Origin: Gemmatimonadota bacterium
GTDB lineage: Bacteria; Gemmatimonadota; Gemmatimonadetes; JACCXV01; JAHWKZ01
Direction of reading: 5' to 3'
DNA length: 64,000 nt
Assembly (NCBI GenBank): GCA_033722155.1
Contig: JAWVZN010000005.1
Span: 8,770-72,769 of the forward strand
Both the position numbers and the translations under genes were made by a program. The notes beneath the pieces are model-generated. The model was not told the origin of the DNA, did no database searches, and was given only the letters and a program-made list of their open reading frames with translations. Positions 53,571-55,369 of the stretch are shown here, piece by piece; positions within the stretch are counted from its first letter, which is position 1; each line of letters starts with the position of its first letter.

Positions 53571-53768
53571 GGCGACCTCCTCAGGTGGCTGCCTGCCCCG
53601 GTCCGCGAGGCGGCTCGGGGCCGATTCGTCTCGGGTGGCTCCGGCCGTCCGCTGGTGACCCAGAGAGGACCCGGTGGCTTTGCGTCCCCCGCTCTCACGG
53701 GGTTTGCCCTTTTCCGAGGACGTCCGTCGAGTTTTTCGCGATCCCTGGCGGGATCGGCCGCAATCGTG

Positions 53769-53784
53769 TGCAAGCCCCGTACCA
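53769..53784 (-). promoter_or_regulatory. Sigma-54 (RpoN) -24/-12 promoter, TGGTACG-GGGC-TTGCA, reading toward 53570.
   Basis: Minus-strand CGGCTGGTACGGGGCTTGCACAC matches TGGCACG-N4-TTGCW at 15 of 16 positions with exact GG/GC spacing. It lies ~190 nt upstream of the lipoprotein start codon. Confidence 0.6.
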
Positions 53785-53876
53785 GCCGTCGACCATTTAC
53801 ATGGTATCCATTGCGCTGCAAGGGGTTGCTGCCGAACGGGCGAACCGGAGAAAACCCGTTCCCGGCTTCAACAGTC

Positions 53877-53903
53877 ACGAAACGTTGTAACGAAATATTC
53901 TAT
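53877..53903. promoter_or_regulatory. Candidate enhancer (UAS) for the sigma-54 activator, ACGAAACGTTGTAACGAAAT, ~100-130 nt upstream of the sigma-54 promoter.
   Basis: A related site occurs at 55331-55358 (ACGAAACGTTATACC-ATTTCGTTACA). The two sites share a 10-mer and an 11-mer. Confidence 0.35.
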
Positions 53904-53939
53904 TTGTGCAGAACCTTCCGGAAGAATCCGGAGAGGGCT

Positions 53940-55328
53940 TCAGGAGCCGGCGGGCTCCAGGCCGTACTTCTCGATCTTGCGGAGCAGTCGCGGGCGGCTG
54001 ATCTCGAGCTCGCGGGCGGTGGCCGACTTGTTCCATCCGTTGCGCTCGAGCGCGTGAGCGACGACCCGCCGCTCGTACTCGTCGTAGGGGAGGCCGTCGT
54101 CGGGCAGCTCGATCACCAGCCGGTCGCGCTCCCCGTCGGGGCTCTCCCGCCGGCCTCGCATCGAGGGAGAGATGTCTCCAGCGGTGATCTCCGGCCTCTC
54201 GCCGAGCAGGATCGCGCGCTCGATCACGTTCTTGAGCTCGCGCACGTTGCCCGGCCACCGGTACTCCAGCAGGAACTCCCGGGCGTCCTCGGTGATCGGA
54301 CGGTACGGCTTGCCGTACTGCTCGGAGTAGCGGGCGGCGAAGTGCTCGGCGAGCAGCACCACGTCGTCCCCCCGCTCACGCAGGGGCGGCAGCTCCACGG
54401 CCACCACGTTGAGCCGGAAGTACAGGTCGGAGCGGAAGAGCCCCTGTTCGATCGCGGTCTCGAGGTTGCGGCTCGTGGCGCCGATGATCCGCATGCTGAC
54501 CGACACCTCGCGGGTGCCGCCGAGAGGCCGGAAGCGCTTCTGCTCGATCGCCCGGAGGAGCTTCCCCTGGAGGTCCAGGGACATGTCGCCCAGCTCGTCG
54601 AGAAACAGGGTGCCGCCGTCGGCGAGCTGGAGCAGGCCCGGCTTGTCGCCCTTGGCGTCGGTGAAGGCTCCCGCCTCGTAGCCGAACAGCTCCGCCTCCA
54701 GAAGGCTTTCGGGAATCGCGCTGCAGTTCACCTCGATGAACGGCTGGTCGCTCCGCGCCGACTGGTAGTGGATCGCCCGGGCGACGAGCTCCTTGCCGGT
54801 CCCGGTCTCCCCGCGGATCAGCACCGTGTTCGCTCCGGAGTCGATCACCTTCCGGACCACCTGGAGGACGTTCCGCATCCGCTCGCACCGCGCCACGATG
54901 TCCGGGAAGCCGGGAAGGGTGTCCGGATCGGCGTCCCGGCCCGACCGCCGCGCCGCGATCGCCTCCCGGGCCGCCTCGATCGAGCGGGAGATCCGATCCC
55001 GCTGCCCCGGCAGCACCAGGTAGTCGCTGGCCCCCCGGGTGAGGGTTCCGACGGCGGACTCGGTGTCGGGTTCCCGCGTCACCGCGACGATCCGGAACTC
55101 GCCGGCCAGCGCGTCCAGCTCCCCCAGCACCCGGTCCCGCTCCTCCCCCACATAGTCGAGATCCACCAGGACGAAGTCGGGCACCGGCGCGAGGGGACCC
55201 CGCCCCGGCACGGCGTCGGGCTGCACGAACACGCACTCCATCCCGCCGTCGGCGGGAATCACCTCGTCGTACTCGGCCGCGGAACCGTAGACGGCGACGC
55301 GGAAGGGGGGGCCGGGGTCGGCACGCAT
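53940..55328 (-). CDS. Sigma-54-dependent transcriptional activator (bEBP) with a degenerate receiver-like N-terminus and a Fis-type HTH.
   Basis: AAA+ sigma-54 interaction domain (GETGTGKELVARAIH, GAFTGA-like ESLLEAELFGYEAGAFTDA, RELKNVIERA) and a C-terminal HTH (SATARELEISRPRLLRKIEKYGL). Confidence 0.85.
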   Translation of the reverse strand: MRADPGPPFRVAVYGSAAEYDEVIPADGGMECVFVQPDAVPGRGPLAPVPDFVLVDLDYVGEERDRVLGELDALAGEFRIVAVTREPDTESAVGTLTRGASDYLVLPGQRDRISRSIEAAREAIAARRSGRDADPDTLPGFPDIVARCERMRNVLQVVRKVIDSGANTVLIRGETGTGKELVARAIHYQSARSDQPFIEVNCSAIPESLLEAELFGYEAGAFTDAKGDKPGLLQLADGGTLFLDELGDMSLDLQGKLLRAIEQKRFRPLGGTREVSVSMRIIGATSRNLETAIEQGLFRSDLYFRLNVVAVELPPLRERGDDVVLLAEHFAARYSEQYGKPYRPITEDAREFLLEYRWPGNVRELKNVIERAILLGERPEITAGDISPSMRGRRESPDGERDRLVIELPDDGLPYDEYERRVVAHALERNGWNKSATARELEISRPRLLRKIEKYGLEPAGS

Positions 55329-55330
55329 CC

Positions 55331-55358
55331 GTATTCGACGAAACGTTATACCATTTCG
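55331..55358. promoter_or_regulatory. Second copy of the ACGAAA/TTTCGT repeat element, in the 41-nt gap between hyuB and the activator gene.
   Basis: ACGAAACGTTATACCATTTCGTTACA is an inverted repeat of ACGAAA-N10-TTTCGT. Confidence 0.3.
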
Positions 55359-55369
55359 TTACACTCGGG

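Follow-up and report, generated by a model that had tools for sequence, protein, structure and literature searches.

The locus and its relatives

Here, we analysed a 64-kb stretch of Gemmatimonadota DNA (the window, whose coordinates are used throughout; the contig is a metagenome scaffold) around the gene of a bacterial enhancer-binding protein (bEBP), i.e. an activator of the sigma-54 type. On the minus strand, the genes follow in the order hydantoinase A/B, bEBP, a non-coding region of 369 nt, lipoprotein, tetratricopeptide repeat (TPR) protein, a gap of 193 nt, archease, RtcB, class II aldolase-domain protein and DegV. An earlier reading of the letters alone (the sequence-only reading) had described this gene string, and Pfam and gene calls bear it out, including the 4-nt overlaps between the RtcB and aldolase genes and between the aldolase and DegV genes. 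We find in the 369-nt region a palindromic enhancer, a predicted sigma-54 promoter and an aptamer for cyclic di-GMP (c-di-GMP); the aptamer had been overlooked, within a stretch labelled merely as downstream of the promoter. Our best reading is that these elements form a clade-specific regulatory module of uncultured Gemmatimonadota, which would place one small operon under two inputs in series (Table 1).

The comparison set comprises 12 related Gemmatimonadota loci (L numbers below) with 16 promoter modules, the window included. They share the order hydantoinase, bEBP, lipoprotein, TPR, in some a TPR-HD-GYP gene, archease, RtcB, aldolase and DegV, and the bEBP gene, the -24/-12 element and the ACGAAA-type sites are conserved in position in the 12 loci. 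A second complete module stands further downstream in L002, L090 and L092; in these duplicates (L002 12191-12530; L090 11826-12150; L092 6076-6420), the palindromic enhancer, the -24/-12 promoter and the c-di-GMP-I aptamer accompany a paralogous lipoprotein gene. True orthologues of the bEBP are few, at 64-71% identity, and every named one belongs to the Gemmatimonadota. A database protein identical to the bEBP is assigned to a metagenome-assembled genome of this phylum. An alignment scan of metagenomes with the N-terminal domain returned three loci only, and a scan of species-representative genomes only two true orthologues; the clade is rare in collections.

Table 1. Features of the regulatory module and of the neighbouring genes, in window coordinates.
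Feature	Position	Strand	Length, basis or context
Sigma-54 -24/-12 element TGGTACGGGGCTTGCA = TGGTAC-GGGGC-TTGCA	53769-53784	minus	consensus match and conservation
Enhancer (upstream activating sequence, UAS) ACGAAACGTTGTAACGAAAT	53877-53896	plus-strand reading	93-112 nt upstream of -24; 44 nt past the bEBP stop codon
Operator-like pair ACGAAACGTTATACCATTTCGTTACA	55338-55363	plus-strand reading	upstream of the bEBP gene
Putative sigma-70-type bEBP promoter, -35-like TTGACC, N17, TATAAC	55368-55373 and 55345-55350	minus	consensus only
c-di-GMP-I (GEMM-I) riboswitch aptamer	53631-53718	minus	between the sigma-54 promoter and the lipoprotein start codon
GC-rich hairpin GCCGAUCCC-GCCA-GGGAUCGC	53738-53759	minus	minimum free energy fold; at the predicted transcript 5' end
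P1 5' strand GGACGUCCUCGG, proposed anti-Shine-Dalgarno	53714-53725	minus	alignment and alternative pairings
Shine-Dalgarno region CUGAGGAGGUCG of the lipoprotein gene	53573-53584	minus	conserved well beyond a simple ribosome-binding site
bEBP gene	53940-55328	minus	462 aa; Pfam and gene calls
Lipoprotein gene	53019-53570	minus	183 aa; signal peptide and lipobox LAAC
TPR protein gene	52301-52966	minus	221 aa; Pfam TPR_12 1.4e-18
Putative sigma-70-type archease-RtcB promoter, TTGCGG, N17, TATCCT	52139-52144 and 52116-52121	minus	8 nt before the archease ATG (52107)
Archease gene	51676-52107	minus	Pfam and gene calls
RtcB gene	50214-51662	minus	Pfam and gene calls
Class II aldolase-domain protein gene	49417-50217	minus	Pfam and gene calls
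DegV gene	48545-49420	minus	Pfam and gene calls

Sigma-54 promoter, enhancer sites and activator

The sequence-only reading had placed a -24/-12 element upstream of the lipoprotein gene, with one mismatch to TGGCACG-N4-TTGCW and correct GG-N10-GC spacing, and it is indeed found there. Scored against TGGCAC-N5-TTGCW, the element agrees at 11 of the 12 specified positions, and its GG and GC doublets lie exactly 10 nt apart. It is the sole match with at most one mismatch in the window, for which 0.24 such matches are expected by chance; at least one arose in 22 of 100 shuffles. A match in a single window may thus quite often be due to chance, and the promoter is convincing because it is conserved across loci. 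Indeed, the element stands at the same place in all 12 related loci and in four second modules (L002 (two), L003, L083-L088, L090 (two), L091 and L092 (two)), while its N5 spacer varies, as in TGGTAC-GAAGG-TTGCT, TGGTCC-GTGGA-TTGCA and TGGCAC-GAGGG-TTGCT. Judged from this conservation, it is a genuine sigma-54 promoter, with a predicted transcription start at ~53758.

Upstream of the promoter, the ACGAAA-type sites refine to a palindrome with the core AACG-N3-CGTT, often extended to GTAACG-N3-CGTTAC. The UAS of the window consists of ACAACGTTTCGTGAC, which matches the palindrome TAACG-N3-CGTTA and abuts a second half-site, ATTTCGTTAC. At the thresholds used, 13 of the 16 modules have a palindrome at 91-138 nt upstream of -24; across loci, the proximal copy is found 102-138 nt from -24, and several modules carry a second copy ~185-205 nt upstream. 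The site of L091 is degenerate by eye, the first module of L090 fits the looser core only, and the second module of L092 was not scored with the same mask as the other modules. With up to two mismatches, TAACG-N3-CGTTA occurs 13 times in the 2.2 kb that lie 60-230 nt upstream of -24 elements and 18 times in the remaining 126 kb, i.e. 5.9 versus 0.14 per kb, a 42-fold enrichment that is not an independent-sample probability because the loci are related. The repeats are thus not scattered at random but concentrated near -24/-12 promoters, and together with the copy upstream of the bEBP gene this agrees with the enhancer and operator roles that had been proposed for them.

The sites had also been described on both sides of the bEBP gene. 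This stands, except that the upstream copy occupies 55338-55363 and not 55331-55358. The window contains the 10-mer AACGTTTCGT in exact form at two places, one before and one behind the gene (0.03 expected; none of 100 shuffles reached two), and GTAACGAAAT is likewise exact at both sites. In the upstream copy, GTAACGAAAT (55353-55362, minus strand) lies within the spacer of a putative sigma-70-type bEBP promoter and AACGTTTCGT (55338-55347, minus strand) overlaps the -10 hexamer TATAAC and the expected +1, while the -35-like TTGACC overlaps the TGA stop codon of hydantoinase B. The arrangement TTGAC(C/G)-N16/17-TAnnnn is also present upstream of the bEBP in L091, L003, L085 and L088. Nine loci have a defined bEBP start codon, and in seven of them an operator-like site precedes it by 19-80 nt; L090 (with a corrected start) and L092 (by direct scan) have such a site as well, and L091 and L003 show more degenerate copies by eye. 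Since the half-sites overlap the sigma-70-type bEBP promoter, this geometry implies that the bEBP would be negatively autoregulated, in line with the autoregulation suggested before.

The protein itself is an NtrC-type sigma-54 activator, as had been recognised: Pfam reports Sigma54_activat (PF00158; 1.2e-65), AAA_lid_14 (4e-25) and HTH_8 (3.7e-10), which gives the order pseudo-receiver (~residues 9-131), AAA+ sigma-54 interaction domain, AAA lid and Fis-type helix-turn-helix (HTH). The Walker A and B motifs, GETGTGKE and DELGD, are shared by the orthologues without change. The loop contacting sigma-54 reads GAFTDA, not GAFTGA (residues 220-225; ~54654-54671, minus strand). This form is invariant in 17 of 17 orthologues and occurs in 80 of the 120 best listed homologues, and therefore marks a large bEBP subfamily. 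GAFTDA is among the loop variants compatible with activation (DVU2106, Desulfovibrio vulgaris; PMC4641369), and for VfmH the consequence of exchanging G for D is noted as untested (PMC10714721).

At the N-terminus, Response_reg (PF00072) is the sole Pfam match and stays below its cut-off (16.5 versus 30.2 bits). AlphaFold2 models the N-terminal 130 residues as a (beta-alpha)5 receiver fold with a predicted local distance difference test (pLDDT) score of 82, and the top Foldseek matches are the NtrX and NtrC1 receivers. Of the receiver residues, D56 (at the phospho-acceptor position) and T84 persist, whereas Y-G stands in place of the acidic pair after beta-1 and Leu in place of the conserved Lys (DYxVLP). 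Because of these replacements and the sub-threshold score, the domain, as modelled, is a pseudo-receiver and not a CARF domain, in agreement with the sequence-only reading. With neither the acidic pair for metal binding nor the Lys in place, the bEBP is likely controlled independently of phosphorylation; no kinase gene lies adjacent to the bEBP gene. Among homologues with a true receiver domain, the nearest is that of L093 (51% identity); TPR and TPR-HD-GYP genes come after it, and the gap between it and the TPR gene holds no sigma-54 promoter and no riboswitch. In the same locus, we observed a GTAACAAATCGATAC palindrome directly past the stop codon of the homologue (7387-7430) and good -24/-12 matches elsewhere (4469, 5182).

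Could the promoter match and the ACGAAA repeats be chance or non-functional sequence? The share of shuffled windows with an equally good -24/-12 match (22%) would allow for it, but the position of the element is kept despite diverging flanks in the 12 loci and the four duplicated modules, and neither the enrichment of the UAS at the expected distance nor the doubled exact 10-mer fits such an origin; as far as predicted elements can be judged, the comparative data effectively refute it. It may further be asked whether a different, unlinked transcription factor binds the palindromes while the adjacent bEBP acts elsewhere. In favour of this, the motif core is short, GC-rich and also present at background level elsewhere. 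Against this stand the occurrence of the motif on both sides of the bEBP gene in nearly every locus, its presence before every duplicated sigma-54 module (L002 12191/12225, L090 11826, L092 6076/6151) at a distance typical of bEBP enhancers, and a bEBP HTH region that is almost invariant among orthologues. We therefore regard an unlinked factor as very improbable.

The c-di-GMP-I aptamer and its proposed expression platform

The aptamer of the window scores 49.5 bits with the c-di-GMP-I model RF01051, against a gathering score of 35. Homologous aptamers score 38-67 bits in L002 (two), L003, L084, L086, L087, L090 (two), L091 and L092 (two), and the aptamer is present in 13 of the 16 modules with the window included, the copy of L085 being truncated by the contig end. 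L083 and L088 are without it, and there the promoter directly precedes the TPR gene. The aptamer consists of two helices with a GNRA loop (GAGA), and its distal P2 varies between copies (CUGG/CCAG, CCGG/CCGG, CUGA/UCAG). At the ligand-contact positions, the consensus has an unpaired G that precedes the G-C/C-G pairs, an A that follows ACGC, and ACC in the 3' junction, and 10 of 10 aligned copies agree with it; we take these positions to be G20, A47 and C92 of Vc2. Because the contact nucleotides match the consensus, they point to c-di-GMP rather than cyclic GMP-AMP (cGAMP) as the ligand. A variant ligand specificity (the GGC variant or a cGAMP-type G20A change) was considered and rejected: the window and all homologues are canonical, the window has A and not G at the variant-defining position, and the GGC-variant model RF03167, whose gathering score is 59, gives the window aptamer 55 bits. 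That threshold is passed by the second copies of L090 and L092 (65-67 bits), which nevertheless keep the canonical A.

The predicted sigma-54 transcript has a leader of ~188 nt. An equivalent of the hairpin at its 5' end, differing in sequence, is found in L002a, L003, L084, L086, L087 and L091 and is absent in L002b, L090a and L090b; it might stabilise the mRNA. Outside the aptamer, the most conserved segments of the leader are the P1 5' strand with its extension (CGACRUCCUCGG) and the Shine-Dalgarno (SD) region of the lipoprotein gene, and these two are complementary at 11 of 12 positions. The unconstrained minimum free energy (MFE) fold pairs the SD region with the P1 5' strand and leaves P1 open in 6 of 10 leaders. 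Seven leaders have a UCCUC/GAGGA pair, and in these the fold with P1 closed lies 1.0-8.6 kcal/mol above the MFE, a difference within what ligand binding can supply in this riboswitch class. By pattern scan, the leader contains no hairpin with a U-run as a terminator.

From these elements we propose the following sequence of events. The bEBP would bind the palindromes through its Fis-type HTH, activate the sigma-54 promoter by ATP hydrolysis and repress its own promoter. In the resulting leader, the P1 5' strand could pair alternatively with the P1 3' strand or with the SD region, such that binding of c-di-GMP would close P1, free the SD and turn translation on. In the relatives, the HD-GYP phosphodiesterase among the products would then exert a negative feedback on c-di-GMP. 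We favour a translational ON switch, although for its direction we see about even odds.

What would be regulated in this way? The first gene of the predicted sigma-54/riboswitch-controlled unit encodes an all-beta lipoprotein with the lipobox L-A-A-C. Its family has 16 relatives among 5.8 billion proteins, the named ones all Gemmatimonadota, and all 16 members share an invariant C-terminal HFSRYxLC (window codons 53019-53045). The lipoprotein has no Pfam match, its AlphaFold2 model is poor (pLDDT 59.5), and a Foldseek comparison of the model with the PDB returned nothing significant (best E = 0.1). On top of the non-significant matches stand NLRP1 FIIND and ankyrin-G ZU5 (E = 0.1-0.35), and HFS is the autoproteolytic motif of ZU5/FIIND and Nup98 domains; a ZU5/FIIND-like lipoprotein is only a lead.

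By BLASTP, the TPR protein of the window shares 52% identity with residues 131-337 of the L087 TPR protein; relatives encode a TPR protein of ~350 aa in the first of their TPR genes, of which the window has a shortened version that covers the C-terminal two-thirds. A TPR-HD-GYP gene belongs to the same unit in L086 (6333-7970), L087 (10566-12176), L090 (10095-11702), L091 (4392-5966) and L092 (8186-9823). The motifs HHERYDGTGYP and HDxGK are present in the four translated HD-GYP proteins (L086, L087, L090, L091), and that of L092 was identified by Pfam HD_5/HD. On these motifs, the TPR-HD-GYP protein is predicted to be a c-di-GMP phosphodiesterase. Because it sits under a c-di-GMP riboswitch in the relatives, a feedback loop on c-di-GMP is plausible there. 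In the window, a motif search found no rpoN, GGDEF or HD-GYP gene, and the counterpart of the TPR-HD-GYP gene is missing.

Elsewhere in the window, an open reading frame (ORF) of 768 aa (41947-44253, minus strand) has regions 2 and 4 of an extracytoplasmic function (ECF)-type sigma-70 factor confined to its last ~180 residues; the long stretch that precedes them may be genuine or reflect an over-extended ORF in GC-rich sequence. ARAGORN reports a tRNA-Leu(GAG) at 60591-60677 (minus strand) that is not in the Rfam gathering-threshold listing, and tRNA-Ala at 16250-16322 is the sole tRNA reported by both.

The predicted regulated unit and its relation to known systems

Is the archease-RtcB string a target of this module? 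A conserved TTG(C/G)(C/G/T)G-N17-TAnnnT lies 6-8 nt before the archease start in the window, L086, L087, L090, L002, L003, L083 and L092, and a sigma-70-like element precedes archease in 9 of the 9 loci with the archease start available, with only the -10 hexamer clear in L088. No Shine-Dalgarno sequence was found at the archease start in the loci examined. Because of this absence and the short distance to the promoter, the transcript would be leaderless or nearly so, and archease-RtcB is probably made from leaderless mRNA in this clade. The module of L091 is complete, from the bEBP, promoter and riboswitch to the lipoprotein, TPR and HD-GYP genes, yet a TPR gene is followed directly by aldolase-DegV, without archease or RtcB. 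In L093, the bEBP homologue is linked to TPR/HD-GYP genes with no RtcB nearby. The new regulatory circuit for an RtcB-archease operon, which the sequence-only reading had put forward, is not borne out by these findings: the riboswitch leader and the lipoprotein/TPR genes come first, archease has a putative promoter of its own, and L091 and L093 are without RtcB. Archease, RtcB, aldolase and DegV are thus probably syntenic neighbours in a separate transcription unit and not the primary target. The earlier reading is partly supported, right on the activator, enhancer, promoter, autoregulation and pseudo-receiver, and wrong in its emphasis on RtcB.

Taken together, we consider it likely, at a probability of roughly 0.7, that the locus holds a two-input gate, in which bEBP and sigma-54 would control transcription and c-di-GMP translation of an envelope/c-di-GMP module, with the archease-RtcB string as a neighbour rather than the primary target. 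Several observations weigh against this. In the window, the P1-closed fold is already the MFE (the two fold states lie at -93.2 and -90.7 kcal/mol, 2.5 apart) and codons 4-6 are the predicted pairing partner of the SD; because of this, the direction of the switch is uncertain in the window. L090b and L084 are without the CCUC anti-SD sequence, and only 2 of 24 predicted aptamer pairs show a compensatory change, the copies being closely related. A motif search for an ORF with the RpoN box found none in the window or the fetched loci, so that rpoN in this genome is only assumed, from the bEBP and from the one Gemmatimonadetes genome surveyed in PMC3372290 (Table 1 therein), which has RpoN. A pattern scan of 48000-55600 found no terminator between TPR and archease, and this gap measures only 9 nt in L088. 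A GC-rich hairpin in the gap of the window was considered as a terminator and rejected, being no more stable than shuffled sequence (z = -0.68). Because no terminator was found, the operon boundary rests on the conserved archease promoter, and some sigma-54-driven read-through into archease-RtcB is possible.

These points lend themselves to other interpretations. The riboswitch might work in reverse or at another level, with c-di-GMP as an OFF signal or with control of transcription elongation or Rho-dependent termination. This would fit the aptamer-closed MFE of the window, an SD that is predicted to be mostly paired in every state (unpaired probability 0.17) and the GC-rich hairpin (GGCCCCG...CGGGGC) that most leaders have between aptamer and SD; long U-runs are often dispensable for termination in high-GC bacteria. 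However, the intervening hairpin is not conserved, being absent in L003 and of other sequence or position elsewhere, and it has no U-run. Moreover, the leader segments under the strongest conservation are the mutually complementary ones, and induction of an HD-GYP operon by c-di-GMP makes homeostatic sense, so that we hold a reversed or different switch to be doubtful, if still a serious alternative. The boundary of the unit invites another objection, namely the original proposal that the bEBP and the sigma-54 promoter drive the whole string from lipoprotein to DegV as a non-CARF analogue of RtcR-rtcBA. All genes are co-directional and closely spaced, the order from bEBP to archease-RtcB is kept in 10 of the 11 loci that are long enough, neither a terminator-like site nor a stable gap hairpin interrupts the string, and a short TPR gene behind the sigma-54 promoter of L088 reaches to within 9 nt of archease. 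The -35/-10 pair without a Shine-Dalgarno sequence before archease, the full module without archease or RtcB in L091 and the TPR/HD-GYP neighbourhood of the L093 homologue argue against it, as do a c-di-GMP leader, which suggests control of envelope and second-messenger functions and not of RNA repair, and an N-terminal domain with a receiver fold rather than CARF; on balance, we find control of the whole string unlikely. Less probable still, we speculate about a hard-wired coincidence detector of a kind as yet undescribed, in which a signal to the pseudo-receiver bEBP (possibly via TPR proteins or c-di-GMP) licenses transcription, c-di-GMP licenses translation, and read-through reaches RtcB-archease. 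If true, the RNA-repair genes for RtcB and archease would, through read-through, be coupled to the state of the envelope and of the second messenger.

In the preferred reading as a two-input gate, the module would be a compact connection between sigma-54 control and c-di-GMP in Gemmatimonadota, and it offers elements open to direct testing, namely a defined operator of 15 bp, a promoter and a riboswitch whose anti-SD platform is simple. There is a caution for annotation as well: adjacency to RtcB-archease does not make the bEBP an RtcR analogue, and the same error would be made by pipelines that derive regulons from co-directional gene strings in genomes of high GC content.

How does the module compare with known systems? 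With RtcR-rtcBA of E. coli and Salmonella, it shares an AAA+ sigma-54 activator gene near rtcB and a -24/-12 promoter nearby. However, RtcR has an N-terminal CARF domain, whereas the present bEBP has a predicted pseudo-receiver, and the rtcBA promoter lies directly upstream of rtcB, whereas the present one is followed by a riboswitch and a lipoprotein gene, with RtcB ~2.1 kb downstream behind its own sigma-70-like promoter. The partner is archease here and RtcA there, and linkage to RtcB is not maintained in L091 and L093. The module thus fails two features that define RtcR systems, the CARF domain and the promoter directly upstream of rtcB. The aptamer resembles GEMM-I riboswitches (Vibrio cholerae Vc2, RF01051) in its score above the gathering threshold, its two-helix fold with a GNRA loop, its consensus contacts and its location in a 5' untranslated region, and also in the association with a c-di-GMP turnover gene (HD-GYP) in relatives. 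It differs in its context of Gemmatimonadota and a sigma-54/bEBP promoter, for which the literature searched yielded no description, and in that the P1 5' strand itself apparently serves as the anti-SD. FleQ/FlrA-type bEBPs show the same order of REC-like, AAA+ and HTH domains and the same loss of the metal-binding acidic pair and Lys, but the present protein has no detectable sequence relationship to the FleQ N-terminal domain and retains D56 and T84.

The nearest analogue known to us is V. cholerae tfoY, which is under dual control by VpsR and the Vc2 riboswitch; VpsR is a bEBP-like protein that binds c-di-GMP and works with sigma-70. Both cases would combine initiation control by a member of the bEBP family with a c-di-GMP riboswitch in the leader of one gene. 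They differ in that the present promoter is of the true -24/-12 type. A full-text literature search, not exhaustive, found no description of a sigma-54/bEBP promoter and a c-di-GMP riboswitch in series in one leader. Every component belongs to a known family, and their combination appears to be undescribed; in contrast to tfoY with its sigma-70-dependent VpsR, the present locus would provide a comparatively supported case of a sigma-54/bEBP promoter and a c-di-GMP riboswitch that act one after the other on the same leader, in a phylum that has received little study.

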